Shown here: piece by piece, positions 21,464 to 41,613 of the stretch
How positions within the stretch are numbered: position 1 is the stretch's first letter
Layout of the letters: every line of letters starts with the position of its first letter
Sequence record: NC_049827.1
DNA from: Escherichia phage damhaus
Strand: one strand, 5' to 3'
DNA: 51,154 bases
Program-made: the position numbers and the translations under genes
The notes under the pieces: model-generated
Told to the model about the DNA's origin: nothing
Database searches by the model: none
The model's input: only the letters and a program-made list of their open reading frames with translations

Positions 21464-21518
21464 ATGCACCTCAAACAAAAAAGCCTGACAGATGATAACA
21501 TCATGCCAGGCATTGTTT

Positions 21519-21992
21519 TTAGCAATTAGTGCTTTCAGGTTTATACAGGAATCCGCCAGGTTCATAATCTGACATTCTTACCACTCGCAACATTTCACGC
21601 TTATCACATCTCTTTGTGAGCGGTTTGCCATTGGAATCAAATCGCAGGTCTGGACGACAAAATGATGCGCGATAACCTTGACAGCCATACTTTTTATAAT
21701 CATTGTGCACCTTTTGAGCGCCAGCGGCTGAAATCATACCGCGAACGCGCCACTGATTTACAGTTTGCTGGCTAACGTTAAGACGTTTTGCCATTGCTGA
21801 TACACTTCCGTAATACTCAATAAGGATGTCAAGGCGCGCTTTTAGTCCGGCGCGAACTTCATCTTTTAAAACATAGTATCCTGTAGGGCGCTTGCGCTTT
21901 TTCTTATCTTTACCCCGTCGAGTTCCGTTGTTGCCATTAATTGTGCGCTTGTCAATCTTGCCAGTTGATACGGCGATCCGCTGTTCTTTCAT
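21519..21992 (-). CDS. HTH-domain DNA-binding protein (putative transcriptional regulator)
   Basis: 157 aa; predicted helix-turn-helix SVSAMAKRLNVSQQTVNQW; very basic N-terminus; divergent from helicase gene. Confidence 0.55.
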   Translation of the reverse strand: MKEQRIAVSTGKIDKRTINGNNGTRRGKDKKKRKRPTGYYVLKDEVRAGLKARLDILIEYYGSVSAMAKRLNVSQQTVNQWRVRGMISAAGAQKVHNDYKKYGCQGYRASFCRPDLRFDSNGKPLTKRCDKREMLRVVRMSDYEPGGFLYKPESTNC

Positions 21993-22081
21993 TATTCATT
22001 CTCCAATAGCATTTTTTGTTAAACGATGATTTAATGATTGTGTATTATACACGCCAAATGGCATTACTCAAAGGTTTTAGA

Positions 22082-28104: not shown

Positions 28105-28503
28105 ATGAGAAAGTTATCAGTAATCGCGATCGCTGTTATCTTGTCTGGATGTTCAAGCGTTACGCCACTGACCGGATTGATAGGAAGCAAGCCTGAGATA
28201 ACAGCACAGGCAGGAGCGGAGAACGTAAAACAGACCGTCGGACTGACAGCAAAACAGGACGCCAGCACAAAACAGGATACGACAATTAAAGAGTCGAAAG
28301 TTGACACTGTTGATACTTCAAACAAAAAGGAGATCAAAACGTCAACCATTCAGGCCAATACCATCAAGGCTGATAAAATCCAGGTCGTGCAGGGTGAGCA
28401 AGGCAAGTGGTACGATCCTATAATATATTGCGCGGCAATTTTTAGTGGTCTTTTGTCAATGCTTTACTTTTCCTGCCGAAAGGGCAACAAAAAGGAGGCT
28501 TAA
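28105..28503 (+). CDS. unimolecular spanin (u-spanin, T1 gp11-like)
   Basis: 132 aa with N-terminal lipoprotein signal (LSGC) and C-terminal transmembrane helix. Confidence 0.7.
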   Translation: MRKLSVIAIAVILSGCSSVTPLTGLIGSKPEITAQAGAENVKQTVGLTAKQDASTKQDTTIKESKVDTVDTSNKKEIKTSTIQANTIKADKIQVVQGEQGKWYDPIIYCAAIFSGLLSMLYFSCRKGNKKEA

Positions 28504-28518
28504 CGCCTCCTTTGTTTT
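28492..28518 (+). terminator. rho-independent terminator after lysis cassette
   Basis: GGAGGC-TTAAC-GCCTCC hairpin followed by TTTGTTTT. Confidence 0.6.
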
Positions 28519-28732
28519 ATGCATCAGCCCACATATAACTTTCGTTTGTGAGTTTTGCATATTCGCGAACTTCAAATTCGCACTTATCACCGTACATCTC
28601 CGCGACTTTCTTCTCGTTCGCTACCGCTGATTCCTCGGTCCATCCATCAGCTTTGCTGTAAAGAGTTGGAATCTCACTGCTAGTACCGTTGGAGTGATTA
28701 TAAACGCGAACTACTAAAAATTTGTTAGCCAT
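28517..28732 (-). CDS. hypothetical protein
   Basis: 71-aa ORF preceded by box, hairpin and conserved leader. Confidence 0.5.
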   Translation of the reverse strand: MANKFLVVRVYNHSNGTSSEIPTLYSKADGWTEESAVANEKKVAEMYGDKCEFEVREYAKLTNESYMWADA

Positions 28733-28793
28733 GATGTTTTCCTTCTGGTCGTTTCGTCTCGATGAAACAAATATACCCGATACGAGATCGGGT

Positions 28794-28815
28794 GTTTTAA
28801 CAAAAAGTGCTATTC
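28794..28815 (-). promoter_or_regulatory. conserved intergenic box copy
   Basis: minus strand reads AAATAGCACTTTTTGTTAAAAC overlapping the TAG stop of gene 28810-29004. Confidence 0.7.
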
Positions 28816-29004
28816 AATACGCTTTACAGTAACCAACAAAACTCCGTCCTCATCACACAAATTATGCTCTGATATATCAAACGCTCGCATGTCAGAATGA
28901 ATGAGCGTTAACATTGCGTGCATGAAGTCGTCATGTGAGATTGAACTTACGGCGCAGAACTTCAATATTTTGTCTATTAGCATTTGACGTAAACAATTCT
29001 TCAT
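28810..29004 (-). CDS. hypothetical protein (start uncertain)
   Basis: 64-aa ORF; overlaps the upstream ORF by 74 nt in another frame, so the start may be an internal Met. Confidence 0.35.
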   Translation of the reverse strand: MKNCLRQMLIDKILKFCAVSSISHDDFMHAMLTLIHSDMRAFDISEHNLCDEDGVLLVTVKRIE

Positions 29005-29323
29005 CGCTCATTTCTCCGATCCGTAAAACATCCCTTACCCATTCGTTTTGCATACCTTCCAGGCTGTAAAGTTCAAACGAGAAAGGGCGATTTGCTGATC
29101 CTTTCTTACACCAGAACTTTCCACCAACTCCATCAAGATAACCAGCGGTCATCATTCTTGCGCAAAATTCTTTTGAAACGGCAGTTGCAAACATCCTCGG
29201 CGTAAATCCTGCGGCCCTTGCGAGCCGCTCACATTCTCTGTGCTGAAAGATAAATTTTGCTATATGTTGACGTGTAAACCATTCGAATGACTCACACCAG
29301 CGATACAGATCCAGAAGAAACAT
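28931..29323 (-). CDS. hypothetical protein
   Basis: 130-aa ORF directly after the DUF3987-like gene. Confidence 0.5.
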   Translation of the reverse strand: MFLLDLYRWCESFEWFTRQHIAKFIFQHRECERLARAAGFTPRMFATAVSKEFCARMMTAGYLDGVGGKFWCKKGSANRPFSFELYSLEGMQNEWVRDVLRIGEMSDEELFTSNANRQNIEVLRRKFNLT

Positions 29324-29325
29324 AA

Positions 29326-30909
29326 TTACCCTAGCAATGTTGGATTTACGAAAACAACGCCATTAATCACACAAATATAATTTCTTTCCTCAATCATCGG
29401 AAGCAGTTGCGTTTCCATGCGCTTCATTACTCCAGCCTGACCAACAAAAGGCTTAACTTTTCGTGCAGCCTCATATATGGCGCGCACATTCAAGATTCCC
29501 TTATTAGCCTTTCCGTGTCGAGTGATGATCTCGATTAGTTTACCCATTTCAGCATCATCACCAGCATAGCCAGAAGCGTTTGCGGCGCTAATGTATGTTT
29601 TGCTCAACTCGCTAAACATCAGCAATGCTTCCTGAACGGTTTCAACCTCAATCTCTTTCGACTTCTGAGGGTATCCACCAGGATTAAACCAATTGCGGAT
29701 AGTGTGCAAAACCGAAGCAATCCTGATCACCTGCTTATCCATTTTGCCAAGCGCACCTCGCAGCATTGTATGCGAATACTTTCCGCCATCAGCAAGGTGC
29801 GGTTCCATCTCCTGACGAGCCATGTTAAGCACTCGCATTGCGGATTTGCTGATCTTAAGCTGGATGTTTGATTCGCTCATGATGTTATGGATCAGCTTAA
29901 AATATTGGCTTTTCAGTTCTCCATCAACAGGCTCATAAGTCGAATCACCGTTATCATCAACAAATTTTCGACGACCTAAAAATGATTCTTCACGCACAAG
30001 CAAATAACGCTCACTCACACCGATACCGCGCGATCCTGCATCCATGATGGCATTAATTGTTTCATCCTGGGCAATTACTGCCATGCAGCCAAGAGCTTTA
30101 AAACTCATGTTATTGTCTGCGTTTGCGCGAGCTATAGAAACATGACCGTGATCCCATGCTTTTAGCACAAGTTCGCTGTTTGTTTTGCGTTCGCTATTGG
30201 CATATGTCAGACCTAAAAGGCTGTTAATACTCGTTGCCTCGTCTGAAATTACAGCAAAGTTACCCTGGCGATTGTTGATTCTTGCAAGTCCTTCCGGCGT
30301 GGTATCGGACACAGGGAAAACAATGTCACACATCTTTTCAAGTTTTTCTTCAAGATCTTCTTTCTCTTGGTATAGCGATTCCATATCAGCGCCAGATCGC
30401 TCGCTTTTCATCTCTTTTGCAAGACCTGCCAACTTTGCCTGAATCTTTTTTCGTTCCTTCTTTCGCTGATCATTAATTCTTTCTACTTCAGCAACCATAG
30501 GAGCAAGTGCCAGGCTGTTAACGGCAGATTTACCAGTTGAAGGAGGCTGGCTTGTGACAACATAAAGAGCTGTCGGCTGATCCGTTCCGTGATACTCAAC
30601 CGTGAAGCGTCCAAGCATTGCAGCAGACACGCAGCCGATAAAATGCATATATGCCGATGATTCAGGGAATTGAACAGAGCGAGCAATGTTGCGAGCCAAC
30701 TTACCAACAACATCAACATCATTGCCAAGAGAAATTACAGGGTAGCGATCGTTTCCGTTATTGACATCATTAACCTCACCCCAAAAGCTGGACGATTGAC
30801 GGTATCCGTTAGCCTGAATGGACACGCGCACCGGAGACAATCCTTGTGCATCAGCTAATTCGATAATTTGTTTTGGTGTTAGTTTATTTGTTTCAAACGA
30901 AAAATTCAT
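29326..30909 (-). CDS. putative replication-associated P-loop protein (DUF3987-like)
   Basis: Start at Met19 with AAAGGAG RBS; 527 aa; Walker-A-like PSTGKSAV; family assignment from memory of motif context. Confidence 0.5.
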   Translation of the reverse strand: MNFSFETNKLTPKQIIELADAQGLSPVRVSIQANGYRQSSSFWGEVNDVNNGNDRYPVISLGNDVDVVGKLARNIARSVQFPESSAYMHFIGCVSAAMLGRFTVEYHGTDQPTALYVVTSQPPSTGKSAVNSLALAPMVAEVERINDQRKKERKKIQAKLAGLAKEMKSERSGADMESLYQEKEDLEEKLEKMCDIVFPVSDTTPEGLARINNRQGNFAVISDEATSINSLLGLTYANSERKTNSELVLKAWDHGHVSIARANADNNMSFKALGCMAVIAQDETINAIMDAGSRGIGVSERYLLVREESFLGRRKFVDDNGDSTYEPVDGELKSQYFKLIHNIMSESNIQLKISKSAMRVLNMARQEMEPHLADGGKYSHTMLRGALGKMDKQVIRIASVLHTIRNWFNPGGYPQKSKEIEVETVQEALLMFSELSKTYISAANASGYAGDDAEMGKLIEIITRHGKANKGILNVRAIYEAARKVKPFVGQAGVMKRMETQLLPMIEERNYICVINGVVFVNPTLLG

Positions 30910-30960
30910 TGATGATAACTCCTTTTTGATGCGGCAATAATACCGCACCAATGCTACCCG

Positions 30961-30982
30961 CATTTAACAAAAAATGCTATTT
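30961..30982 (-). promoter_or_regulatory. conserved intergenic box copy (one mismatch)
   Basis: minus strand AAATAGCATTTTTTGTTAAA overlapping the TAG stop of gene 30977-31198; followed by hairpin containing TATTAT. Confidence 0.6.
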
Positions 30983-31198
30983 GATCCGCTCTATGCTAAC
31001 TAAGATTTTTTCTGGTTCCTTTGCGCTGTGGCAATGCGCGGTTACGGAATCAGCAAAATCAAAATAAAGTGATTTGTTGTAAGAAAAACCAATCAGCCAT
31101 CCAACCATCGTTTTCTTTATTGGCCTGACTATATCGCCAGGCTTGAATGTTTTTGTTGCTGAACAAGTAACCTTATAGCGATATTCAGTCTTGATCAC
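30977..31198 (-). CDS. hypothetical protein
   Basis: 73-aa ORF with GTG start overlapping the upstream stop (GTGA). Confidence 0.45.
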   Translation of the reverse strand: MIKTEYRYKVTCSATKTFKPGDIVRPIKKTMVGWLIGFSYNKSLYFDFADSVTAHCHSAKEPEKILVSIERIK

Positions 31199-31581
31199 TT
31201 ATACATAGCCTCAAACAAATGACAGCCACCAGCGGAAAATCCTACTTCTTCGCGGTATAGCGTCCAGCGGTCGCCAGCTTCATCAAAAACATAACCAGCA
31301 ACAGCACCAAGCGCTCGTCCTTGCTCAATCTGGTAACGCTTTCCTTCTTTGAAATGCTTTTTGCACGGGATCTTGTGATCTACAAAGGTGCATTTAATTG
31401 TTTTTGTCTTGATATGACGATAGTCAGACTCAACAGCGTTTTGCCACTTGCTACCCTTTGTAATACTCTTTACCTGGAATTGTTCCAACTCGATCACATC
31501 ATCGCTACCAGCAATTTTTTCGTATACAGCTTTATAACGACCGTTCATCAAAACGTTGGTTTTATTGCAGATAACTTTCAT
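31195..31581 (-). CDS. hypothetical protein
   Basis: 128-aa ORF with AAAGGAG RBS. Confidence 0.55.
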   Translation of the reverse strand: MKVICNKTNVLMNGRYKAVYEKIAGSDDVIELEQFQVKSITKGSKWQNAVESDYRHIKTKTIKCTFVDHKIPCKKHFKEGKRYQIEQGRALGAVAGYVFDEAGDRWTLYREEVGFSAGGCHLFEAMYK

Positions 31582-31636
31582 CGTTTATTTCTCCTTTCGT
31601 TTCGGTGAAGTGATTATGCCAGGATTTTACACCTGG

Positions 31637-31658
31637 CTTTTAACAAAAAGTGCTATTT
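31637..31658 (-). promoter_or_regulatory. conserved intergenic box copy
   Basis: minus strand AAATAGCACTTTTTGTTAAAA overlapping the TAG stop of the methyltransferase gene; followed by GCCAGG...CCTGGC hairpin and CATAAT. Confidence 0.7.
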
Positions 31659-32363
31659 TGCGTTAGCTTCAAAGACTGCGCGTGCAAAACCGCGCGGGGT
31701 GAGAGAGCGGATCATCTTTGTGCGAGATGATTTTCCGCCAGTTTTGGCCCAGCCTGGATTATCTTTATCGTCCTCTTTCGGCAGTATTAAAGCGCGCGGA
31801 GGAATAACAAAGCCGTTGCCAGTCCAAAGACATGTTTTCTTAAAGTAGCGATCCCGCGCAGGAATAATATCAGGGAAGTCGGGATGTTTATCATCTTCCG
31901 GCAGATAGCCAGCGTAATCGCACGGATGGAACGTATAATCAGGCTTACGCCATAACGTTGACAGCTTGCCTACAGGATTCTCTATCATGTAAGGAACACC
32001 GAAATAATCAGCGATATGCGCCGCTATTTTGCAAGTGTCGGCGGCTTCATCCTGGAATTTTGGATTATCAATTCTCTTTTTAGCCCAATGGCGAGATCCG
32101 CTATTTGCAAGGTCAGTGCATGGAGGGAACGCCATAATAAAATCAGGCTTACCCCAATTTTCAAGTTTTGCGGTATATTTGAATAGATCATCAATCCACA
32201 CATTAACGTAAAAAATATTATCGTGGATTATGCGCACTGAGTGGTAATCACCGTGATCTGCATCATCGTAATTAAAGCAAATGCATTTATATCCAGCATT
32301 AGCCCAATCTTTAACGGCTTTACCAGATCCATCAAACAAAGAGAAAATTAAACCCTTATACAT
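31653..32363 (-). CDS. putative DNA (cytosine-5)-methyltransferase-like protein (short, orphan)
   Basis: 236 aa with FDGSG (motif I-like), PPC (motif IV-like PC dipeptide) and IENP (ENV-like); GAGGTGA RBS. Confidence 0.5.
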   Translation of the reverse strand: MYKGLIFSLFDGSGKAVKDWANAGYKCICFNYDDADHGDYHSVRIIHDNIFYVNVWIDDLFKYTAKLENWGKPDFIMAFPPCTDLANSGSRHWAKKRIDNPKFQDEAADTCKIAAHIADYFGVPYMIENPVGKLSTLWRKPDYTFHPCDYAGYLPEDDKHPDFPDIIPARDRYFKKTCLWTGNGFVIPPRALILPKEDDKDNPGWAKTGGKSSRTKMIRSLTPRGFARAVFEANAK

Positions 32364-32372
32364 TTCATCACC

Positions 32373-32597
32373 TCAAAACGGAAAGCATCGCGGGCAGTTA
32401 GGATCGAAGTTGCAGCCGCAATCATTGACAATCATTGTTGGATCTGCAAATGCAGCGCCGCATTCATGGTCCATATCCATTTCACCCAACGCATCATCAA
32501 GCGTCCTGATTTTATATGCGACTTCAAGCGCGGCCTCTTTATTCAGTCCGGCATCTTCTGCTTTTTGCAGTCGCTCAAAAAATCCGTCCTGACTCAT
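32373..32597 (-). CDS. small Cys-rich protein (possible zinc-binding)
   Basis: 74 aa; C-terminal HECG...CGCNFDPNCPRC cluster; AAGGAG RBS. Confidence 0.55.
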   Translation of the reverse strand: MSQDGFFERLQKAEDAGLNKEAALEVAYKIRTLDDALGEMDMDHECGAAFADPTMIVNDCGCNFDPNCPRCFPF

Positions 32598-32695
32598 TTA
32601 ATAAACTCCTTAATAACAGTAAGAAGAATTGCAAGCCAAAGCAAACCAACAAGGCCAATCATCACGACAAATAAAATATCAAGAAATTTCATCAT
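32594..32695 (-). CDS. putative 33-aa hydrophobic micro-protein
   Basis: Below track cutoff; MMKFLDILFVVMIGLVGLLWLAILLTVIKEFIK; AAAGGTGA RBS; stop overlaps downstream start. Confidence 0.4.
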   Translation of the reverse strand: MMKFLDILFVVMIGLVGLLWLAILLTVIKEFIK

Positions 32696-32742
32696 TATTA
32701 TCACCTTTATTTAAAGGGAGGCGGAAACCTCCCATTGATTAA

Positions 32743-32970
32743 TCATACAGCCTTCCAGCTTTCAATAAACATGCTGTTTTCTTCCAGCAGTTTAATCAAT
32801 TCTTCGCGCGTGTATTTGCGGATTTTACTACCTGGATGTGAGCCAACAACAAACACACCTTTACCACTCGTGATTGTTAACTGGTTGATTCCGCAAGATT
32901 TATCCATCTTAATGGCGACGCGGTGATGTGCATCAACAGTGTGCATGATGTTAGTGACTTTAGCTTTCAT
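32743..32970 (-). CDS. hypothetical protein
   Basis: Start at Met22 of track ORF (GAGGA RBS, TATAAT and a degenerate box upstream). Confidence 0.5.
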   Translation of the reverse strand: MKAKVTNIMHTVDAHHRVAIKMDKSCGINQLTITSGKGVFVVGSHPGSKIRKYTREELIKLLEENSMFIESWKAV

Positions 32971-33022
32971 TATGCGATCCTCATTATATTTGGTGTGGTA
33001 ACTATACAAGGTTTGATAAATA

Positions 33023-33043
33023 TTGTTTAGCAATTCGTGCTAT
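33023..33043 (-). promoter_or_regulatory. conserved intergenic box, variant copy
   Basis: minus strand ATAGCACGAATTGCTAAACAA, like the variant at 39967; followed by TATAGT and TATAAT. Confidence 0.5.
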
Positions 33044-33144
33044 CAGTTGAAATAGCTATGGCGCTTTGCTCGCTTGCCGTCTCCGCCATAATGATCATTT
33101 GCAACAGCTACCATCCAGGCATTATGGAGTATTATTAGCTTCAT

Positions 33145-33426
33145 CTAATTAATACCAACAACGTTAAAACTCACAGCTTTTGTTGCGCTAAATACATACG
33201 CTTCAACAGCCTCACCAAATACACGAATTTTTCCATAACCGTACTGCGCATTCATATTGCGCCAAACCGTCCTGTTAGAACAGAACGCGTTACCAGTCTT
33301 GATAAGATTATCCATCTCTTTTCTTAGGTCATGATAATCAAGCCAGAATCTATAAGCGCGTTGTTTAATGAGTTGCGCCTTTATTGTTTCGATTGCGCTA
33401 TTGAAATCATTCTTTTCGTATGCCAT
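33145..33426 (-). CDS. hypothetical protein
   Basis: 93-aa ORF with GGAGA RBS, translationally coupled to upstream gene. Confidence 0.55.
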   Translation of the reverse strand: MAYEKNDFNSAIETIKAQLIKQRAYRFWLDYHDLRKEMDNLIKTGNAFCSNRTVWRNMNAQYGYGKIRVFGEAVEAYVFSATKAVSFNVVGIN

Positions 33427-33665
33427 TAGACGATCTCCAAATTCTCGATCTTGTTATTGCCAATTGCAGAATGAACGCAACGCTCTTGCGTCTCCTTGTC
33501 GCCATGAACATCAATATAATACCCTGGTATAACAGTAAAAAACCAATTGCCGCGCCAGAAGAAATAAAGGCCGTGCTTGCTTCCTTTTGCGCATTTATTC
33601 GCATTTTTAGGTATTGGAAGTCCGTGGACTCGCCGCAATTCTACATTCTTGTTAAAATTTGGCAT
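33426..33665 (-). CDS. hypothetical protein
   Basis: 79-aa ORF with GGAGG RBS; several Cys/His. Confidence 0.55.
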   Translation of the reverse strand: MPNFNKNVELRRVHGLPIPKNANKCAKGSKHGLYFFWRGNWFFTVIPGYYIDVHGDKETQERCVHSAIGNNKIENLEIV

Positions 33666-33859
33666 TATACAACCTCCATAAAAGTATTGAATCCACGCAG
33701 TTTGAAAGCATTGCCGTGTTTAACAACGTTCCATGTCAGACCGGAGTGATACGCAACCATATCCTCAAGATCAATTGTGATGATAGCGCCTTTCTTAAAG
33801 ATTCCTTTCTCGTGAGTGGTGTCGCGCTGCACAACTTTAACATCAACCTGTGTTTCCAT
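33665..33859 (-). CDS. hypothetical protein
   Basis: 64-aa ORF with GAGGA RBS, preceded by box, hairpin and conserved leader. Confidence 0.5.
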   Translation of the reverse strand: METQVDVKVVQRDTTHEKGIFKKGAIITIDLEDMVAYHSGLTWNVVKHGNAFKLRGFNTFMEVV

Positions 33860-33914
33860 TTTTAAATCCTCGTTCGTTGTCGATGCGCATAATATACCAA
33901 TCAGAGGCGCATCG

Positions 33915-33936
33915 GTTTTAACAAAAAGTGCTATTT
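33915..33936 (-). promoter_or_regulatory. conserved intergenic box copy
   Basis: minus strand AAATAGCACTTTTTGTTAAAAC directly after the TAA stop; followed by hairpin containing TATATTAT. Confidence 0.7.
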
Positions 33937-34201
33937 AGTCCAGGAATTCGATTTCACGATCGCCAGTTAACGGATCTACAAGCCAGAATCCGAGCGGTTC
34001 GCCGTAAACACCGCCATAGAATCCAAGCGCCGCCAGATCTTCACCTTTAACGAATGCCAGGTTTCCGCTACGGCTTACATGAGACACGTTAACGATAACC
34101 GGAAAGGTGCGATCCTTAAACGCAGGCCGCAGGGCGTAACATCCGTTATTGAGTAAACGGGCCTTGCGCTTAACTGGAATAGGTGCATTGATACGTGGCA
34201 T
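33935..34201 (-). CDS. hypothetical protein
   Basis: Start at Met32 of track ORF with AAGGAG RBS; 88 aa. Confidence 0.5.
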   Translation of the reverse strand: MPRINAPIPVKRKARLLNNGCYALRPAFKDRTFPVIVNVSHVSRSGNLAFVKGEDLAALGFYGGVYGEPLGFWLVDPLTGDREIEFLD

Positions 34202-34220
34202 CTTTATTTCTCCTTTGTTG

Positions 34221-34460
34221 TTAACCATGTTTAACGGCATCCAGAACATCACAGGATTCGTTAATAAATTTTGCCATGCGCTTATCATCACCAACAGGTA
34301 TTAGCGCGTTACACTCGCGTTCGCTACTGAACACTGTCACTTTATGGAATGATGCGAAAGGCATCGACGGGAACTCGACTGTTTGCCTCAAGATCCGCAA
34401 CCCCATCTTTTTGGCCCTTACCTGGGCCTCTGCAAGTTCAAAATCCACTTCGCTAATCAT
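34221..34460 (-). CDS. hypothetical protein
   Basis: 79-aa ORF with AAGGAG RBS. Confidence 0.55.
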   Translation of the reverse strand: MISEVDFELAEAQVRAKKMGLRILRQTVEFPSMPFASFHKVTVFSSERECNALIPVGDDKRMAKFINESCDVLDAVKHG

Positions 34461-34729
34461 TTCTTGATCTCCTTAGCAATAAACTTCAATACCTTGCGCA
34501 AAAATACCTCGTTGTTGATGGTCGCTGGCAATTCTTCTTTCACTTCTTGCGGCAGGTAAATATTGCCGTGCCAGGTTAGGCAATCGTAGTTGATACGATA
34601 AGAGCAAAGCCACTCGCAATCGTTATCAGCTTCCCAAATGCAAAGCTGCATTACGTCGCCAAAATCTTCAACAGTCAGTTCCAGACCATGACGCTTTGCA
34701 AAGTTGAAGGTGGTTTTGCTGATGTTCAT
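34457..34729 (-). CDS. hypothetical protein (first gene of minus-strand block)
   Basis: 90-aa ORF; GGAGA RBS; Cys-rich (CxxxxxxC...C...C). Confidence 0.55.
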   Translation of the reverse strand: MNISKTTFNFAKRHGLELTVEDFGDVMQLCIWEADNDCEWLCSYRINYDCLTWHGNIYLPQEVKEELPATINNEVFLRKVLKFIAKEIKK

Positions 34730-34790
34730 TGCTATCTCCTGATTGGTATCTCGTTTCGATGAGATAACTATACCAGGTTATTCCGATCTT

Positions 34791-34812
34791 GTTTTAACAA
34801 AAAGTGCTATTT
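34791..34812 (-). promoter_or_regulatory. conserved intergenic box copy at head of minus-strand block
   Basis: minus strand AAATAGCACTTTTTGTTAAAAC followed by TATAGT and the CATCGAAACGAGAT leader. Confidence 0.7.
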
Positions 34813-35345
34813 CTCAACTGGCGATTATTCCATCTATTCCATTAATCAGGAATAACAGGAATAACTCATTCGAGATCACCTGGATTGTGAGATCTTGAGT
34901 TTGATCAATTTTAATCAGGTGATTAACTTTTTGTGTGGAGGGGATAGAGAAACGCGGTCCTCTTGCGTCCTTTCCGGCAATCCTGGCGCGCGCATCTGTT
35001 ATCTTCTGTTATCGCTGTTATGCGTGTTATTCCGGCGTGGAATCGCATAACAAAAAATAACAAGAGAAATCCATATAACATACTAAAAAATAAGGATTAT
35101 TTATTTATATGTATCTATAAATTACTATCTGTTGTGCGTGTTATGTGGTCATATTGATGCCTGATGTATTTTTGGTGATTGTATGTGGTTGTGTGTTGGC
35201 AGGTATGTATATATGGGGCGGTGGCGTATCCGCGCATTTTTAGATAACACGCAAAAACAACATTGATTTATAAGAAAAAAAACACAAATCCTGTTGTGTT
35301 CTGAAAAGACAACATAGGAAAACCGCCAATAACAATAAAAAACAG

Positions 35346-35375
35346 TTGACACACCAGGTGACGGTAAATGATAAT
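35346..35375 (+). promoter_or_regulatory. sigma70 promoter (TTGACA-N18-GATAAT)
   Basis: consensus -35 and near-consensus -10 about 30 nt upstream of the first plus-strand early gene. Confidence 0.65.
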
Positions 35376-35405
35376 GCAGCCACTGAATCACGAGGGGGAT
35401 AAAGC

Positions 35406-35876
35406 ATGAGTGAATCTGTATTTACAAATGAGCTTCGCAAGGTTGCAATTGCTCTAGCCACTGGAGTGCATGAATCTATCCAGATACCTGAAAGATGGGT
35501 AAGGCAGCACCTGGAGGGCAAGAAGTCAGCCAGCAACGCCGGATCATATCTGCGTCAGATTATGGGGCGCGTTCCAGAAGTGGCGGAGAAGGGGAGAGTT
35601 TCAGTCTCAAAGAAACCTTACGGCCCTGATAGCGAATATTTCGGAGAAAATTACTTTGATGTGGCGATTGTTAGTGCTCCGAATCGCAGGGTGTACAACA
35701 AGGCCGCGCTTGAGAAGGCTGTAGCGAAAGCAAAACGCCAGGTTGCTGAGTCGATGCTTAAAGTCTCACCAAACCTAGCGAACTACTCGCCAGATGAATA
35801 TGAAACACTTGCTAAGGCGATCGCAGACTTTCACGCGATCATTAAAGAAACATATCTTAACGATGAGGATCAATAA
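35406..35876 (+). CDS. hypothetical protein (first plus-strand early gene)
   Basis: 156-aa ORF with GAGGGGGA RBS. Confidence 0.6.
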   Translation: MSESVFTNELRKVAIALATGVHESIQIPERWVRQHLEGKKSASNAGSYLRQIMGRVPEVAEKGRVSVSKKPYGPDSEYFGENYFDVAIVSAPNRRVYNKAALEKAVAKAKRQVAESMLKVSPNLANYSPDEYETLAKAIADFHAIIKETYLNDEDQ

Positions 35877-35877
35877 A

Positions 35878-36126
35878 ATGAGCAAACTTACTCTTGATGA
35901 ACTGATGGAAAAAATTGATGAAGTGGGCTTTAACAAACTGGTTGATTTCCACTTGACCGCATGTGAAATCACCGCGCAGGAGTTTAGCGAAATGCTATCT
36001 GATGCGAGCGAGATTTACACAAGCCTATGCGGAAGAGAAATCAAAGTCATTGAAATTGAAATGCCTGGAGATCCGGTATTTGCAAGGCTTGTGGCTGCAT
36101 TCGATGAGGAGAATGTTGGACTCTGA
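35878..36126 (+). CDS. hypothetical acidic protein
   Basis: Start at Met29 of track ORF (GAGGA RBS); 82 aa. Confidence 0.5.
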   Translation: MSKLTLDELMEKIDEVGFNKLVDFHLTACEITAQEFSEMLSDASEIYTSLCGREIKVIEIEMPGDPVFARLVAAFDEENVGL

Positions 36127-36130
36127 GCGG

Positions 36131-36152
36131 AAATAGCACTTTTTGTTAAAAC
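36131..36152 (+). promoter_or_regulatory. conserved intergenic box copy
   Basis: AAATAGCACTTTTTGTTAAAAC followed by GCCAGGC...GCCTGG hairpin, AATAAT and conserved leader. Confidence 0.7.
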
Positions 36153-36209
36153 GCCAGGCGCAAAGCCTGGAATAATAGCCTCATCGAAACGAGATTGAGG
36201 AAAACAAAA

Positions 36210-36395
36210 ATGGCACGTCGCATCACCAAAGACCTTAAAGTTCTGAACAAAGAAAACGTAGTTAAAATCCTGGTTATCTGGGGATACAACGAAGAAACAG
36301 CAAAGCAGAAGGTAGAAGCAGGTTATGAGCTGGCTGTAAAAGCAATGCCAAACGACGACGCAAAAGGCATTGCAAACTATGTAGCTTTCTTTTAA
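36210..36395 (+). CDS. hypothetical protein
   Basis: 61 aa from the ATG after the conserved GAGGAAAACAAAA leader. Confidence 0.5.
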   Translation: MARRITKDLKVLNKENVVKILVIWGYNEETAKQKVEAGYELAVKAMPNDDAKGIANYVAFF

Positions 36396-36410
36396 TTATC
36401 AGGTGAATAA

Positions 36411-36596
36411 ATGAAAACGAAATTAGTCCATAAATCAGAAATCAAGATCGGCGATACTGTAATTCACAACGGCGAGCTTAGAACGGTTGGCAAAGAGTCA
36501 ATAATCCACGATGAATTTATGGGGATCTTGTTGTTCGGTGACTCTTATCGTCTTGGTTATAAAATGGTTGAGCTTGTGGAAGATGTAAAATTCTAA
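36411..36596 (+). CDS. hypothetical protein
   Basis: 61-aa ORF with AGGTGA RBS. Confidence 0.5.
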   Translation: MKTKLVHKSEIKIGDTVIHNGELRTVGKESIIHDEFMGILLFGDSYRLGYKMVELVEDVKF

Positions 36597-36617
36597 ATAG
36601 CACTTTTTGTTAAAAAC
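36595..36617 (+). promoter_or_regulatory. conserved intergenic box copy
   Basis: AAATAGCACTTTTTGTTAAAAAC overlapping the TAA stop; followed by CATAAT. Confidence 0.7.
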
Positions 36618-36696
36618 GCCAATCTGAAAACCTGGCATAATGCATCACATAGGGCGGCACGGCGTCGCCCAGTTAAACCAATCAGGAGAAAGTACC

Positions 36697-37017
36697 ATGT
36701 TAAAACTTGCTGACATTAAATTCCCGATCACCTTCGAATCTCGCGGCGTTGGTCATTACACATTCACAGATAAGAACACTTGCCATCAAGTCTACATGTA
36801 TAGCGACAAGCCAGAGCCATCAACAATGAAGATTGAGGACTTCATTGATAAGCACAACAAGCACTACAATTCGCTAAAAGATTATGGATACGCAATGCCA
36901 GGATACACCTGTTTGCACTATAAGCCATATAAGGGCCAGGTGTTACCAGTGCGCTCAACGGAACGCGCAGAGATTCATACGGTAGATATGAAAACCTGCG
37001 ACTACAAAAAATTGTAG
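36697..37017 (+). CDS. hypothetical protein
   Basis: Start at Met20 of track ORF with AGGAG RBS; 106 aa. Confidence 0.5.
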   Translation: MLKLADIKFPITFESRGVGHYTFTDKNTCHQVYMYSDKPEPSTMKIEDFIDKHNKHYNSLKDYGYAMPGYTCLHYKPYKGQVLPVRSTERAEIHTVDMKTCDYKKL

Positions 37018-37026
37018 TGCTTAAGC

Positions 37027-37605
37027 GTGGATAATATCAAGTATCCGATTGTTTTTCATTGTGGCGGTTCAACAATCAGGTTCACATCGCGCGACAATGG
37101 CGTTTATAGCGATGGTCAGAAATCAGAGTTGAAAGTTGATTTCTTTGTTAATGGTCACAACAAATTCAATCCGCACAATGAAACTGGCAATGTGTACTAC
37201 GTGGAAGACATTACAAAACACTTGTTTGGGGAAACACCATTCGGCGGCGGGAAGACGTCAATTCAACAAATCATTGGCGAGGAGATCCACAAGGCAGCCG
37301 TTGAAATGAAAGCGCCTGGAGGCTGTAAGATTGATAAAATCGACCTTATCACCATTCGCTCAAAGATTGGCGGAGTTGAATACGAGGGCAAAATTGAAAA
37401 AATGCCGCTCGGCGCTTCAATTATCGGCATCAAAGACGACAACGGCGATTGGCATGATGTTTCTTTCCCGATCAAGCGTATCGAAGTTCTCGACGACTTG
37501 ATTTGCCTCCTGGCGCATCATGGCAGCTATAAGAACAATCCGTTCTCCGCAGAGCTAAACATCAAGCGCGGAACGCTGGTTAAGTGGAAGGTTAAGTGTA
37601 AATAG
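37027..37605 (+). CDS. hypothetical protein
   Basis: 192-aa ORF; only possible start is GTG without a clear SD; ends inside a box copy. Confidence 0.45.
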   Translation: MDNIKYPIVFHCGGSTIRFTSRDNGVYSDGQKSELKVDFFVNGHNKFNPHNETGNVYYVEDITKHLFGETPFGGGKTSIQQIIGEEIHKAAVEMKAPGGCKIDKIDLITIRSKIGGVEYEGKIEKMPLGASIIGIKDDNGDWHDVSFPIKRIEVLDDLICLLAHHGSYKNNPFSAELNIKRGTLVKWKVKCK

Positions 37606-37621
37606 CACTAATTGTTAAAAC
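37600..37621 (+). promoter_or_regulatory. conserved intergenic box copy (variant)
   Basis: AAATAGCACTAATTGTTAAAAC overlapping the TAG stop; TATAAT about 17 nt downstream. Confidence 0.65.
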
Positions 37622-37674
37622 TCAAATGTGGGGCCAAGTATAATGGCCTCACTTTCAACGAAGGAGATAAAACG

Positions 37675-37896
37675 ATGTACATTAACAAGAAGATGAAATG
37701 CATTTCCGTTAACTATGGTTGCGCTGGAATGTTCAAGCCTGGCGAAATATATATGGCGCAAAAGTTGAAATCGTCAACCGGATCTTTTTACGTGAGCAAT
37801 AGTAAGGGGCATCGCATGTTCCTGAACGGCGGTGAAGGCACTAAGGTTATGGCACACGCTATGGTAATTGCTGAATTTGAGGAAGTGAAAGAATGA
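37675..37896 (+). CDS. hypothetical protein
   Basis: Start at Met22 of track ORF with AAGGAG RBS; 73 aa. Confidence 0.5.
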   Translation: MYINKKMKCISVNYGCAGMFKPGEIYMAQKLKSSTGSFYVSNSKGHRMFLNGGEGTKVMAHAMVIAEFEEVKE

Positions 37897-38078
37897 TTGT
37901 TTACGTTGTGCATGGTGATATTATCTACGACGGTGAATACTATGAGGGCGTTTTCAGTACGTTCGAACAGGCAGAGCATCATGCAAAGAATCTTCCTGAT
38001 TATTACGATAACGTAACAGTCAGAGAGTCAAAAATTGACGATCCAGCATACGAAGGTAACACATGGGATTTCCGATGA
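37893..38078 (+). CDS. hypothetical protein
   Basis: 61-aa ORF, ATGA overlap with upstream gene, GAGGAAG RBS. Confidence 0.5.
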   Translation: MIVYVVHGDIIYDGEYYEGVFSTFEQAEHHAKNLPDYYDNVTVRESKIDDPAYEGNTWDFR

Positions 38079-38614
38079 AAAAATACGAATTTGAACTTTG
38101 GGGAAGCAAATACCATTTTTCCACTAGCAAGCCGATTGTTATTGTTGACCTTGACGGCACGTTATCAGATGGAACGCACCGCTTGCACCTGCTGCCGACA
38201 GAAGATTTGCACCTTACAGAAAGCTGGTCTGAGTTCAACAAAGCGGCTGTTGGCGATTCGCCGATTAAGAGCACGGTTTCAGTGGTTAACGGATTGTGGA
38301 TGTCAGGATTTGCCATCGTTATCCTGACAGGGCGCAGCGATGAGGTGATGGCTGACACCTGCGACTGGTTAAATTATAACGGCATCAAGTACGACGCGTT
38401 AATCATGCGCCGAAAGGAAGATAACCGAAAAGACACGATCATCAAAGAGGAAGTCTTGCGAGCTATCGGACTGGAAAACATTGTGTGCGCTTTTGATGAT
38501 TCGCCGAACGTGGTTAAGCACTTCCGCAGCCTGGGAATCACAACCTATCAGGTCACGGAATACGAAAAGCCACATAATCACATCCAATCGCACGGCGTGG
38601 ATGAATTAAAATAG
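38075..38614 (+). CDS. HAD-superfamily phosphatase (polynucleotide 3'-phosphatase-like)
   Basis: DLDGTL (DxDxT) motif near the N-terminus; start at Met5 overlapping the upstream stop. Confidence 0.6.
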   Translation: MKKYEFELWGSKYHFSTSKPIVIVDLDGTLSDGTHRLHLLPTEDLHLTESWSEFNKAAVGDSPIKSTVSVVNGLWMSGFAIVILTGRSDEVMADTCDWLNYNGIKYDALIMRRKEDNRKDTIIKEEVLRAIGLENIVCAFDDSPNVVKHFRSLGITTYQVTEYEKPHNHIQSHGVDELK

Positions 38615-38630
38615 CACTTTTTGCAAAAAC
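38609..38630 (+). promoter_or_regulatory. conserved intergenic box copy (variant)
   Basis: AAATAGCACTTTTTGCAAAAAC overlapping the TAG stop; followed by hairpin and TATAGT. Confidence 0.65.
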
Positions 38631-38685
38631 AGATTGTCGGGCTTGCGGTATAGTAAGCCCATCGACAACGAAAAAGGAAAACATC

Positions 38686-38985
38686 ATGTTAGTTCGTAAT
38701 GCGATTTATAAATTCACCAACGAGATGGGAGTTCACCTTTACCACGTAAACCATCAAGGCCACACATCAATTGCGATGTATCGCGACGCTCGCGGGAAGT
38801 GCAAACCTTCTCTGCGTGGCAGAATTTCGCCTGCGTTCTTCATGTTCAGATGGTATGCAACAGAACAAAGCAACCATAACCATTGGAATAAAGTATTGGT
38901 TGCAGGAGGCCGAATTGTTGCCAGCCACGTAGTCGATCCGCGCAAACTAACCAGCCGCCAGCTTCGCAAAATGGCGCGCAAGTGA
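38686..38985 (+). CDS. hypothetical protein
   Basis: 99-aa ORF after the conserved AAAAAGGAAAACATC leader. Confidence 0.5.
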   Translation: MLVRNAIYKFTNEMGVHLYHVNHQGHTSIAMYRDARGKCKPSLRGRISPAFFMFRWYATEQSNHNHWNKVLVAGGRIVASHVVDPRKLTSRQLRKMARK

Positions 38986-39001
38986 TAGAGGAGAAGAACA
39001 A

Positions 39002-39187
39002 ATGATCTATGCGCTTGTATTTTTAGTGATTTTCTTTTATATTTCAGGATTATTTATCTTCCGCGCATTGGTTAAAGCGTGTGATTGCACTGATAAAGAT
39101 CAGCCTATTGTTCTGATTTTCTGGTTTGTGTGGTTTTGGGTGGCGCTTTACCAGATTGTGCGGGATGAAAGCGGCTTTAAGTGGTGA
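39002..39187 (+). CDS. small membrane protein
   Basis: 61 aa with two hydrophobic segments; AGAGGAG RBS. Confidence 0.5.
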   Translation: MIYALVFLVIFFYISGLFIFRALVKACDCTDKDQPIVLIFWFVWFWVALYQIVRDESGFKW

Positions 39188-39381
39188 TTCTTGCTATAGC
39201 GCATTCATGCAGTGCGCTATGTTGAGATAACAACATGAGATCATGAAGATGCGAAACTTCGAAAAAATCGTATCCAAAAAGAAGCGATACAGCTACCACG
39301 AGCACCAAGAGATGAATCAACGCTATCGCAATAAGCGCCAGCGCCCAGGTAAACATTCAAGCCGATATGGAGACAACTAAT

Positions 39382-39972
39382 ATGAAAAGAGACATTATCA
39401 TCCTTAACGGACCGCCAGGGGTTGGCAAGGATACGCTTGCGGCATACTTAACGGGCCATCGTTACGCAGCCGTTAAAGCGTCGTTTAAACAGCCTATGTT
39501 TGATATTGCGTTTTCCATGCTTGGCGTTTACCGATATGACGAGTTCATTGATCTGTATAACGACCGCGAGCAGAAAGAAAAGCCTCAAGCAATCTTGCAA
39601 GGCAAGTCGCCTCGCCAGTTCATGATCTGGATTAGCGAAGAAGTTATGAAGCCAGCTTTTGGCGAGCAATATTTCGGAAATCGCATGGTTGAGCAAGTAC
39701 ACGAGATGTACAGAGATTTAGCTGTTGTAATTAGTGATGGCGGATTCCCTGAAGAAATCAAACCGCTCGTTAAGGCAGGCCATGAAGTTCACATTTGCCG
39801 ACTGCATCGCGAAGGCTTCACGTTTGATGGCGATTCACGAAACTATATTGACCTGAGCGGATACCATCACCGCGTAAAACATTACGACTTCACAATGATT
39901 GATGGCGATCAAGAAAAGACTGTTGACGAGATCATCAAAACGGTCCAGTGGAAACACATTAAGATCAAATAG
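39382..39972 (+). CDS. P-loop nucleotide kinase (dNMP kinase-like)
   Basis: GPPGVGKDT Walker A near the N-terminus, a GKDT-type motif as I recall it from phage dNMP kinases; start at Met6. Confidence 0.55.
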   Translation: MKRDIIILNGPPGVGKDTLAAYLTGHRYAAVKASFKQPMFDIAFSMLGVYRYDEFIDLYNDREQKEKPQAILQGKSPRQFMIWISEEVMKPAFGEQYFGNRMVEQVHEMYRDLAVVISDGGFPEEIKPLVKAGHEVHICRLHREGFTFDGDSRNYIDLSGYHHRVKHYDFTMIDGDQEKTVDEIIKTVQWKHIKIK

Positions 39973-39988
39973 CACGAATTGCTAAAAG
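39967..39988 (+). promoter_or_regulatory. conserved intergenic box copy (variant)
   Basis: AAATAGCACGAATTGCTAAAAG overlapping the TAG stop; hairpin then TATAAT about 18 nt downstream. Confidence 0.6.
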
Positions 39989-40042
39989 CGGGGCGCAATG
40001 CCTCGCTATAATGCAAACACCAATCAACGAGAGGAAATCATC

Positions 40043-40444
40043 ATGGTAGAGTTAAACGACATTCGCGTTGGAACAAAATTTCGCGTAACCTGGGCAGATG
40101 AATATTGCGGCGTTAGCAAGGGCCAGGTTGTTACTGTGGATAGTATTTATCGCGGATGCAGCAAAGACTTTCGCCGCCCACGCATCAAGAATGGCTATAT
40201 CATTACTCGCCGTTTTGGCTTTGAGCATTATTACGTAGTGGCGACTCAAGGAGTTTTGATTGAGCTTCAGCGAATCAGCGATCATCGCGGCTGTCATGTC
40301 AAAACAACGAAGATACCATTTCAGCGAGCGAGATACGATGCGCGACGGATGCGCCGACTTGCTCGAAATGCGATCAAGTTCAAGAAGCATGGTGGTAACT
40401 TTTACCGAATGTACAAAGGGATTGCGCGAAATGCTGGAAAATAA
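40043..40444 (+). CDS. hypothetical basic protein
   Basis: Start at Met16 with GAGAGGAAA RBS; Arg/Lys-rich C-terminus. Confidence 0.5.
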   Translation: MVELNDIRVGTKFRVTWADEYCGVSKGQVVTVDSIYRGCSKDFRRPRIKNGYIITRRFGFEHYYVVATQGVLIELQRISDHRGCHVKTTKIPFQRARYDARRMRRLARNAIKFKKHGGNFYRMYKGIARNAGK

Positions 40445-40543
40445 CAACAACGCAACCAATCCAAAGCCGCCATTTGATTTTCATGAAATCATGATTGTGT
40501 TATTCTTGATTCTCTTAGTTATCTATTCAGTGAGGGCCGCACT

Positions 40544-40807
40544 ATGGTTTTTAACGCACTAAAACGAATCTTTAAACCTGAATACCGGATCGTTGCTTGC
40601 ACAGAATGCAAGATTTATTACCTGCAACGCCGCCGCGTTATCAGTGGCGATTGGGAATATCTGACGGATGACGCTTTCGGCTTTTGGGCTATGGAGTTCA
40701 ATAGCTACAGTGAAGCGCGCGAATACGCTAAAAAGTTGCACAAGTTCCGACCTTACAAAATGCGTTTGCTTGTTGTAAAAAAATGCGATGTGTGGGATCA
40801 CGTATGA
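40544..40807 (+). CDS. hypothetical protein
   Basis: 87-aa ORF with GAGGG RBS. Confidence 0.5.
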   Translation: MVFNALKRIFKPEYRIVACTECKIYYLQRRRVISGDWEYLTDDAFGFWAMEFNSYSEAREYAKKLHKFRPYKMRLLVVKKCDVWDHV

Positions 40808-40983
40808 AAAGAGTAATTATCACTTTTATTGCCCTTATCGCTGGTTGCTACTTGGCTTATGGATATGGCGGCATTGTTGAGTCAATCGGCGGATTGATTA
40901 TCTTCATGGCTGGCGGATATGCTGGCTATGGTGACGGATTCAAAGACGGTAAGCGATACATGCTGACCGGAAAAAAGAAGTAA
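40804..40983 (+). CDS. small membrane protein
   Basis: 59 aa, Gly/Tyr-rich hydrophobic; ATGA overlap with upstream gene. Confidence 0.45.
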   Translation: MKRVIITFIALIAGCYLAYGYGGIVESIGGLIIFMAGGYAGYGDGFKDGKRYMLTGKKK

Positions 40984-41025
40984 TGTTAACCGCGCCGCTT
41001 AGGTGGCGCCAAAAGGAGGAAACAA

Positions 41026-41313
41026 ATGGCTAAAAGCTATCGTAAAATGTTGATTAACGCATTCGAAAAGGCAGCGCTTGAGCGTGGTTGGAATGACTCA
41101 TTTCACACAGCAAACTGTATCCGCCGTTACGGATTCAAGAATTGCCGCTCATGGGCGCGTGAAATGGCTTCATGGTATGATCTTGATGCGCATTACCTTG
41201 ATATGGATTGCGCCCTGGTTGAAATGATTGAACAGGCAGCATTAGAGGATCGACCATTAACGCAATCTGATTTTGACGATTTTGTGCGCGATGAAATTTA
41301 TTATATGAGCTAA
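41026..41313 (+). CDS. hypothetical protein
   Basis: 95-aa ORF with AAAGGAGG RBS. Confidence 0.55.
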   Translation: MAKSYRKMLINAFEKAALERGWNDSFHTANCIRRYGFKNCRSWAREMASWYDLDAHYLDMDCALVEMIEQAALEDRPLTQSDFDDFVRDEIYYMS

Positions 41314-41332
41314 TAGCACTTTTTGTTAAAAC
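41312..41332 (+). promoter_or_regulatory. conserved intergenic box copy
   Basis: AATAGCACTTTTTGTTAAAAC directly after the TAA stop. Confidence 0.65.
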
Positions 41333-41388
41333 TTCCGCGAGGGCATTTGTTAAAGTGTCCTCATTGAAGCGAAACAGAGGAAAGCGCA

Positions 41389-41613
41389 ATGAAAATTCGA
41401 ATTACCAATATTGAATCAACTAGCCCGTTTGATACTGACGAATTAAGCCTTGAGCAGTGTGGGATCGAGGTTGGCGATGTGTTCGAAGTTACCGGACAAT
41501 ATCGCGATGGGACTTTGAGCATTCAAGCGCCACGAGATACCGATGATGGTTGCATCAAGGCTGGCGATGAATTGAGCGTTAACGAAGGTGAATATGAGGT
41601 TGTAGAAGAATGA
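41389..41613 (+). CDS. small highly acidic protein
   Basis: 74 aa, D/E-rich; first of three coupled acidic ORFs. Confidence 0.55.
   Translation: MKIRITNIESTSPFDTDELSLEQCGIEVGDVFEVTGQYRDGTLSIQAPRDTDDGCIKAGDELSVNEGEYEVVEE

Follow-up and report, generated by a model that had tools for sequence, protein, structure and literature searches.

When phage TLS was re-annotated in 2024, a direct repeat of 21 nt, aaATAGCACnnnTTGnTAAAA, was reported at 21 sites, about 76 nt before start codons and pointing along transcription, and it is also present in T1, Rtp and Rogue1 (PMC11447400). The authors of that work found few sigma-70 promoters and proposed a stoperator, an enhancer-binding site or an UP-like element, with the role left open (PMC11447400). 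In T4-type phages, the promoter-early stem-loops (PeSLs), which are small composite repeats of a promoter and a stem-loop or terminator, punctuate clusters of small non-essential open reading frames (ORFs) in hyperplastic regions and mark the junctions of indels and replacements (PMC2839356, PMC4122927). The present analysis concerns a repeat of the TLS type, here called the box, and the genes that accompany it in Escherichia phage damhaus (NC_049827.1). The whole stretch of 51,154 nt is referred to as the window, and the minus-strand genes at 28517-34729 as the block.

Based on its sequence, damhaus was assigned to the T1-like phages of the genus Hanrivervirus (Drexlerviridae, Tempevirinae). 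The region 28517-34800 showed 96.7% identity to Escherichia phage aaroes across 96% of the block, and about 20 other Hanrivervirus genomes showed 92-94% identity to the window across the same region. The block is real, but it comes from a well-sampled phage genus with a published repeat and is largely known. A first-pass annotation, made from the letters alone, had stated that almost none of the proteins could be recognised, which proved overstated: deposited phage genomes match the whole block at 92-97% identity, and all of the ORFs, lettered a to q from right to left, belong to PHROG families except b, f and i. In our view, the block probably represents the leftward non-structural arm of a Hanrivervirus genome, organised in cassette-headed operons that carry both accessory and core genes.

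The box repeat and its cassettes

Nineteen copies of the box were found in the window against 0.06 expected by chance. Five of those belonging to the block read AATAGCACTTTTTGTTAAAA (34792, 33916, 31638, 30962 and 28795), and the sixth, at 33025-33044, is of the GAA subtype, GATAGCACGAATTGCTAAAC. All six match ATAGCAYNNNTTGNTAAA with zero mismatches and lie on the coding strand, with 82, 76, 74, 76, 72 and 82 nt between the 5' end of the box and the ATG. The first-pass annotation had placed one copy at the start of the block and five more within it, and this count was confirmed, the copy at 33025 being picked up by the degenerate consensus alone.

The block box and the repeat of TLS and T1 agree in consensus (aaATAGCACnnnTTGnTAAAA), in orientation along transcription, in intergenic place (about 72-82 nt before start codons) and in having the same T and GAA subtypes. 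The repeat itself is already published; what is added here is a promoter model for it, in which the element whose function was left open in the TLS paper is tied to a -10 hexamer at 19 nt, a leader, an excess of hairpins and homology breakpoints.

The cassettes were analysed in a set of 371 distinct sequences from the window, T1, Bas11 and 38 related IMG/VR loci (41 genomes or loci). A TATAAT-like hexamer lies exactly 19 nt past the box in 304 of the 371 (82%) and at 18 or 20 nt in 41 more. Across the set, the information content of the hexamer is highest at A2 and T6, which is the signature of sigma-70, and the commonest hexamers in the family are CATAAT, TATAGT and TATTAT. About one third of the cassettes (99/292 family-wide) have TG at -15/-14. 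A TGn-extended -10, a form able to compensate for an absent -35, is present in three of the six block cassettes (34792, 33916 and 31638). Further downstream, the conserved CATCGAAACGA leader begins 3-4 nt past the hexamer and is followed by GAGGA and then by the ATG.

The six block cassettes, all on the minus strand, have their hexamers 18-19 nt from the box. Cassette 1 (34730-34811) consists of a box at 34792-34811, a 19-nt spacer, the TGn-extended -10 TATAGT at 34767-34772, the CATCGAAACGA leader, a Shine-Dalgarno (SD) sequence and the ATG of ORF a. In cassette 2 (33860-33935), the box at 33916-33935 is followed by the -10 TATATT at 33891-33896, flanked by the arms of a hairpin, while cassette 3 (32971-33044) has the GAA-subtype box, an 18-nt spacer and the -10 TATAGT at 33001-33006. 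Cassette 4 (31582-31657; box 31638-31657) contains a spacer hairpin, GCCAGG...CCTGGC, abutting the TGn-extended -10 CATAAT at 31613-31618. The -10 of cassette 5 (30910-30981; box 30962-30981), TATTAT at 30937-30942, lies within a hairpin, and in cassette 6 (28733-28814; box 28795-28814) a terminator-like spacer hairpin, ACCCGAT...ATCGGGT, is followed by a T-rich -10 (TATATT) and tail, TATATTTGTTT. No -35 hexamer was found 16-19 bp before the -10 in the block cassettes, the canonical position reading AAAACN, and a scan for consensus sigma-70 promoters detected only that at 33025 among them. A promoter made of the box and a -10 at a fixed distance would explain why such standard scans are nearly empty.

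Experimental data bearing on the cassette are available for phage Bas11, in which gene 54 comes first after a box cassette. For the cloning of Bas11 gp54 'with its native promoter', the phage-derived part of the primer began at TAGCACTTTTTGTTAAAA (Zhang et al.); the clone begins at TAGCAC of the box. Gp54-FLAG was detected from it in uninfected E. coli MG1655, and two CapRel-escape mutations upstream of gene 54 lowered expression (Zhang et al.). Because the clone expressed Gp54 in uninfected cells, the cassette appears to work with host polymerase alone. Together with the fixed 19-nt distance between box and -10 and with the leader and ribosome-binding site (RBS), this expression suggests that the boxes belong to promoter cassettes, and it is indirect evidence that the block cassettes are driven by host RNA polymerase.

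According to the proposed model, a cassette would comprise a 20-bp box at about -51 to -32, a GC-rich spacer of 18-20 nt (usually 19) and a sigma-70-type -10, and would continue through the CATCGAAACGA leader and the SD sequence to the ATG. The box would substitute for the canonical -35, and host RNA polymerase would start about 7 nt past the -10, which gives the putative start sites in the block. In the window and in Bas11, sense boxes with a good -10 are confined to non-structural modules, which fits an early or middle expression class, and early expression of the block is inferred.

Boxes also occur elsewhere in the window. The rightward small-ORF arm (35406-43400) is organised like the leftward block and has six sense box cassettes (boxes at 36132, 36596, 37601, 38610, 39968 and 41312), each box being 70-100 nt before an ATG. 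Boxes antisense to late genes were found at 2376-2395 (-) and 49788-49807 (-), as well as in T1 (18832 and 15068) and Bas11 (6348). One of the two antisense boxes in the window lies between the major tail gene and the gene for the tape-measure chaperone and has a weak -10, about 25 nt past which there is a GC hairpin with a T run; it could give rise to a short antisense RNA. The other, with TGTTAT as a poor -10, lies shortly before the major capsid gene. Conservation in T1 and/or Bas11 was seen for both positions. Moreover, boxes at 21518-21535 (-) and 22005-22024 (+) flank a conserved gene for a putative transcriptional regulator at 21564-21980 (-): the former lies directly past the regulator stop, upstream of the primase gene, and the latter in the divergent gap towards the SNF2 helicase gene.

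Hairpins, homology breakpoints and other readings of the box

Each cassette was folded and compared with its shuffles. For the stretch from box to start in 98 non-redundant cassettes, the mean z was -2.0, and 52% of the cassettes were below -2 (p 5e-17); a GC hairpin is present in most cassettes. Within the block, hairpins were found at 33881-33915 (cassette 2, z -3.43), 31603-31637 (cassette 4, -5.19), 30927-30961 (cassette 5, -3.91) and 28760-28794 (cassette 6, -3.20). Two layouts occur in the family, with either a stem-loop in the spacer abutting the -10 or arms flanking the -10, so that the hexamer is in the loop. The latter layout has no obvious function. In the GenBank record of T1, such hairpins directly after boxes are annotated as rho-independent terminators, and a terminator scan of the block cassettes returned only cassette 6 as fitting. 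The spacer hairpins probably damp read-through out of the preceding unit, which would be a terminator role. A fixed-register covariation analysis of spacer against post -10 columns gave no pair that stood out, since the hairpins sit in a variable register.

Being near-identical repeats, the cassettes may also act as joints for recombination, through which modules of genes enter or leave the genome. Using homology segments from relatives at least 85% identical, 8 of 15 distinct breakpoints fell inside the six cassettes, whose share of the block is 8.9% (p 1.4e-5). The breakpoints 33856 and 33935, at cassette 2, are found in 7-8 close relatives, and those at 28753 and 28808 correspond to cassette 6. 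Aaroes and several more relatives carry an additional unit of two genes that has the segment 33856-33935 on either side. When all relatives were included, the enrichment was weak (0.18 vs 0.11, p 0.03), as segment ends in distant relatives reflect the decay of similarity.

Several points weigh against an arm of cassette-headed operons as described above. The TTGTTA of the box was considered as a -35 and rejected, being 22 bp from the -10 and so too far, which leaves recognition by region 4 of sigma-70 unexplained. The positions of the Bas11 mutations are not given in the published text, so the box is not established as the required element. Literature searches returned no transcriptome, promoter study, or start, terminator or timing data for damhaus or, as far as could be found, any T1-like phage (Drexlerviridae), and the TLS paper was the only one found on the box. 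Two of the block cassettes, 1 (z -0.55) and 3, have no hairpin, and where the arms flank the -10 without a U tract the hairpins cannot be intrinsic terminators. Repeats alone can end BLAST segments at cassettes, and the paired ends of one indel are not independent in the breakpoint count. Finally, 11 of the 17 block ORFs have no predicted activity.

Other functions of the box were also weighed. The boxes might primarily be operator or stoperator sites through which a phage regulator times or silences expression, and not a promoter part read by RNA polymerase. The G/C-containing positions of the box (ATAGCAC...TAAAA) are near-invariant across genera, which suggests sequence-specific binding by a protein, and stoperators and enhancer-binding sites were both raised by the TLS authors (PMC11447400). 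The boxes on both sides of the regulator gene, at 21518 (-) and 22005 (+), raise the possibility that this regulator acts on them, and the winged-helix fold of ORF o points in the same direction; the regulator at 21564-21980 and ORF o would be the candidates for such a role. The distance to the -10, fixed at 19 nt in 82% of the copies, is the behaviour of a promoter element, and a fragment that begins at the box was expressed without any phage protein. We thus find it unlikely that operator function is the primary one, although operator and promoter roles are not exclusive. Even less probable, and in our opinion scarcely tenable, is that the box acts as an ordinary UP element or as a -24/-12 element of the sigma-54 type, dependent on an enhancer-binding protein. 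When the box is set against the UP and sigma-54 (TGGCAC-N5-TTGC) consensus sequences, its T5...A4 tracts resemble the former, and TAGCAC-N3-TTG is superficially like the latter. UP elements and enhancers are also mentioned in the TLS paper (PMC11447400). Nevertheless, at about -51 to -32 the box is 7-8 bp downstream of the UP position and has an invariant G and C. It lacks the GG of sigma-54 elements, its G-to-G spacing is 9 and not 11 (2 nt short), and it does not obey the GG-N10-GC rule. A sigma-70-type -10 follows at a fixed distance, and the annotations of relatives list neither a phage sigma factor nor an enhancer-binding ATPase. Both the UP and the sigma-54 readings were rejected on geometry, and the promoter cassette with a sigma-70-type -10 is the reading retained below.

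Genes of the leftward block

Seventeen minus-strand ORFs tile 28517-34729, with start codons set as in annotated relatives, and the ORFs reported by the first-pass annotation are all present. Its suggestion of translational coupling also held, as neighbouring ORFs overlap or leave a gap of 0-2 nt at 7 of the 16 junctions, and SD sequences precede most of the ORFs. If the boxes head promoter cassettes, the block would form six short transcription units, [a b c], [d e f g], [h i j k], [l m], [n o p] and [q], bounded at one end by a divergent control region of 600 bp and at the other by a bidirectional terminator in common with the lysis genes. The latter is a palindromic GC hairpin at 28491-28513 with T runs on both strands, predicted to terminate both the leftward block and the convergent lysis cassette. 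An Rfam scan of the block revealed no family, and its sole match (E 0.066) was this terminator hairpin.

To describe gene content, presence was counted in 22 related loci covering the whole block. The promoter-proximal ORFs a-i are hypervariable among relatives: ORF a occurs in 11 of the loci, d in 12 and g in 13, and b, c, e, f and i in 3-5 each, as does q, with m in 14. ORF a (34457-34729, 90 aa, phrog_6147) has three conserved Cys and shares an ATGA overlap with ORF b (34221-34460, 79 aa), which has no family and is present in 3/22 relatives. ORF c (33935-34201, 88 aa, 5/22) matches the C-terminal part of phrog_9595. ORF d (33665-33859, 64 aa) is followed by ORF e (33426-33665, 79 aa, DUF7274, 4/22), which is missing from aaroes, where the indel is bounded at about 33439 and 33660. 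ORF f (33145-33426, 93 aa) has no family; the label 'putative homing endonuclease' that it carries in phage JakobBernoulli had no hidden Markov model (HMM) support here. ORF g (33043-33144, 33 aa) belongs to phrog_32259 and ORF h (32743-32970, 75 aa, 18/22) to phrog_4344. The hydrophobic 33-aa peptide noted earlier corresponds to ORF i (32594-32704), a single transmembrane-like product of 36 aa from a GTG or 33 aa from an internal ATG, found by tblastn in 3/22 relatives. At the far end of the block, ORF q (28517-28732, 71 aa, 3/22) is assigned to phrog_27210.

The product of ORF d is a small beta-barrel of the Gp54 family, matching PF25180 over residues 1-64 of 64 (E 1.5e-37, 127.6 bits, cut-off 27) and PDB 9axb with E 1.5e-14. 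Bas11 Gp54 is non-essential, is lost in deletions that remove neighbouring genes and directly activates CapRelSJ46, and its substitutions A7V and I25V each abolish this activation. The homologues from Bas5, Bas8, Bas10 and SECphi27 do not trigger CapRelSJ46, and the authors suggested that the family may inhibit another defence system. Like Bas11 Gp54 (PF25180; PDB 9axb, 9erv), ORF d is a full-length member of the family in the same position, as the first gene behind a box cassette, but the two are only 53% identical, and ORF d has V7, G24 and A25 in place of the activating A7, G24 and I25. Owing to V7 and A25, ORF d is predicted not to be a CapRelSJ46 trigger.

The distal part of the block is different in character. 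ORFs k, l, n, o and p occur in 22/22 relatives, which argues for a DNA-modification and replication core in the distal half; this core makes up about half of the block by length. Also widespread, besides ORF h, is ORF j (32373-32597, 74 aa, phrog_9323, 20/22), whose CxC-x5-CxxC motif is a probable zinc knuckle. The first-pass annotation had described three small proteins as Cys/His-rich, which stood for ORF j, with its near-invariant motif, and for ORF a, but not for ORF e, in which no Cys or His is conserved. ORF j begins the pair with ORF k (31653-32363, 236 aa), 9 nt downstream, and it is always directly upstream of this short C5 cytosine DNA methyltransferase. ORF j could serve this enzyme, whose target-recognition region is very small, as a partner or specificity factor.

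ORF k matches phrog_757 (E 1e-85), and its residues G12-S13-G14, P80-P81-C82 and E128-N129-P130-V131, corresponding to motifs I, IV and VI, are invariant in 20 homologues. Its AlphaFold (AF2) model has a predicted local distance difference test (pLDDT) score of 83, and the top Foldseek matches of the model are the catalytic domains of DNMT3A/B (E 4.6e-7, probability 1.0, template modelling (TM) score about 0.5). The earlier C5-methyltransferase-like label is therefore borne out by motifs and fold, though the match to Pfam PF00145 is below threshold (13.6 bits, cut-off 22), and the ORF k profile gave at best E 0.3 against the PDB. Sequence searches of the PDB with ORFs a, h, j, l and n, as well as k, returned no relative.

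ORF l (31195-31581, 128 aa, phrog_2684) is overlapped at its stop by the GTG start of ORF m (30977-31198, 73 aa, 14/22). ORF n (29326-30909, 527 aa) contains the Walker A motif PPSTGKS and the Walker B motif AVISDE and matches PF13148 (E 1.8e-43, 149.6 bits, cut-off 27) and phrog_2373 (E 4e-245), in line with the earlier description of a DUF3987-like P-loop protein. For one DUF3987 protein, 5'-3' helicase activity has been demonstrated (PMC11724360), and ORF n is identified by the above matches as a putative helicase of the DUF3987 family. ORF o (28931-29323, 130 aa), to which a winged-helix fold was assigned, starts 2 nt past the helicase stop; the label 'YdbL' given to it in some records is unsupported in every library searched. 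ORF p (28810-29004, 64 aa) matches phrog_9539 over residues 6-63 and has 74 nt in common with the 3' end of ORF o, read in a different frame. The two could be a true overlapping pair, or ORF p may start at an internal Met right after the stop of ORF o. In functional terms, the proximal cargo would thus be hypervariable small accessory proteins including the Gp54-family beta-barrel, and the distal cargo the 4-Cys protein with the short C5-methyltransferase, ORFs l and m, the DUF3987 helicase with its winged-helix partner, and ORF p.

Two alternative views of the small ORFs have to be considered. The first-pass annotation had remarked that host-takeover and anti-defence functions typically reside in such early small-protein blocks of virulent phages; on this view, the whole block would be an early host-takeover and anti-defence island, whose small proteins would mainly inhibit host defence or host machinery. 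This is in agreement with the hypervariability of ORFs a-i, with their location behind host RNA polymerase promoters in the non-structural arm, with a Gp54 family that is non-essential, sensed by CapRelSJ46 and suspected by its authors of inhibiting another defence system, and with a methyltransferase that could guard against restriction, an anti-restriction function of ORF k being plausible. On the other hand, the universal ORFs k, l, n, o and p resemble DNA-modification and replication functions, ORF d is without the residues needed for CapRel triggering, and in the BASEL study the methyltransferase genes of Drexlerviridae showed no simple relation to resistance against restriction. Neither defence-related families nor, in the PDB searches above, solved anti-defence proteins were matched: the PADLOC families gave no convincing match, only weak methyltransferase-type ones. 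NCBIfam gave nothing for ten block proteins. The PADLOC matches of ORF l to DruM (E 0.004) and of ORF n to JetC (E 0.005) were dismissed as weak and probably spurious. The sole experimental link of the block families to immunity is Gp54 as a trigger, not an inhibitor. We therefore regard an anti-defence island spanning the whole block as doubtful, and the idea appears to fit, by analogy, the variable proximal half only.

It is also conceivable that many of the small ORFs are not genes but frames that happen to stay open between real ones, as b, f and i have no PHROG or Pfam family and ORFs g and i have weak ribosome-binding sites. However, 14 of the 17 have end-to-end matches to PHROG families, the tiling of the strand by the ORFs comes with coupling overlaps and SD sequences, independent genomes have them in their annotation, and the strand-wide GC skew is consistent with coding on the minus strand. 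Chance frames are for these reasons very improbable.

Placing the Bas11 proteins on the window gave a standard T1-like map: tail genes at 1-12 kb, recombination genes at 13.6-16 kb, lateral fibre, primase and regulator at 16-22 kb (-), SNF2 helicase and Dam at 22-25 kb, lysis genes at 27.4-28.5 kb and the genes from terminase to capsid from 43.5 kb. The block is syntenic with T1 genes ST1-ST10 and Bas11 genes 45-55. The divergent non-coding region of 600 bp (34812-35405) separates it from the rightward small-ORF arm and contains four tandem copies of ATAACA(G/C) at 34996-35030 (-), 9-10 nt apart, with three more nearby. The area's single near-consensus sigma-70 promoter, TTGACA-18-GATAAT, is also located there, at 35346-35375 (+). 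These elements could be iterons, an origin or regulator sites; the exact pattern of the ATAACAG array is not kept in most of the related loci compared. An imperfect repeat array with a 21-nt period was also observed at 19656-20035 (-), apparently within the lateral tail fibre gene; its 8 copies of a 44-nt family are 61-73% identical to the reference copy.

Comparison with known systems

T1-like phages are common laboratory contaminants, phage-therapy candidates and test phages in defence studies, and their transcription programme is essentially unmapped. The new elements of this analysis are the promoter model for the T1-family repeat, the PeSL-like behaviour of the cassettes, the split into core and accessory genes and the folds of ORF k and ORF o. 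With the box tied to a -10 at a fixed distance, the promoter model is cheaply testable and would apply to all non-structural genes of the family. The cassette model also suggests a route by which accessory genes are exchanged, and the variable small ORFs a-i and q are sensible candidates for an anti-defence screen, apart from the methylase and helicase core.

Among the core proteins, ORF k shares with short C5 methyltransferases, such as the DNMT3 catalytic domain and M.HaeIII, the motifs I, IV and VI, a Rossmann fold and a small target-recognition region. Unlike them, it falls under the PF00145 threshold, has no NCBIfam match and is always preceded by the 4-Cys ORF j. ORF n has the replication context in common with the DUF3987 helicases of mobile elements (e.g., AgaPH, PMC11724360), but no N-terminal PriCT domain was detected in it, and the primase is encoded separately at 20543-21472.

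The closest parallel to the cassettes themselves is the PeSL of T4. The two have no sequence relationship and come from different phage families; the PeSL has a canonical -35 where the cassette has the 20-bp box, and the hairpin of the cassette, unlike that of the PeSL, is found past the box and ahead of the start site, or around the -10. Nevertheless, both are repeats of a promoter and a stem-loop which occur among variable small ORFs and at indel junctions. We tentatively suggest, as a possibility that we do not favour, that the box cassettes, read by host RNA polymerase or by another factor, are the Drexlerviridae counterpart of the PeSL, a self-contained module of promoter, hairpin, leader and RBS without a -35 that would also be a recombination joint for the shuffling of small counter-defence genes, and that at least one of the variable ORFs a-j, possibly the Gp54-family protein, is a new defence inhibitor.

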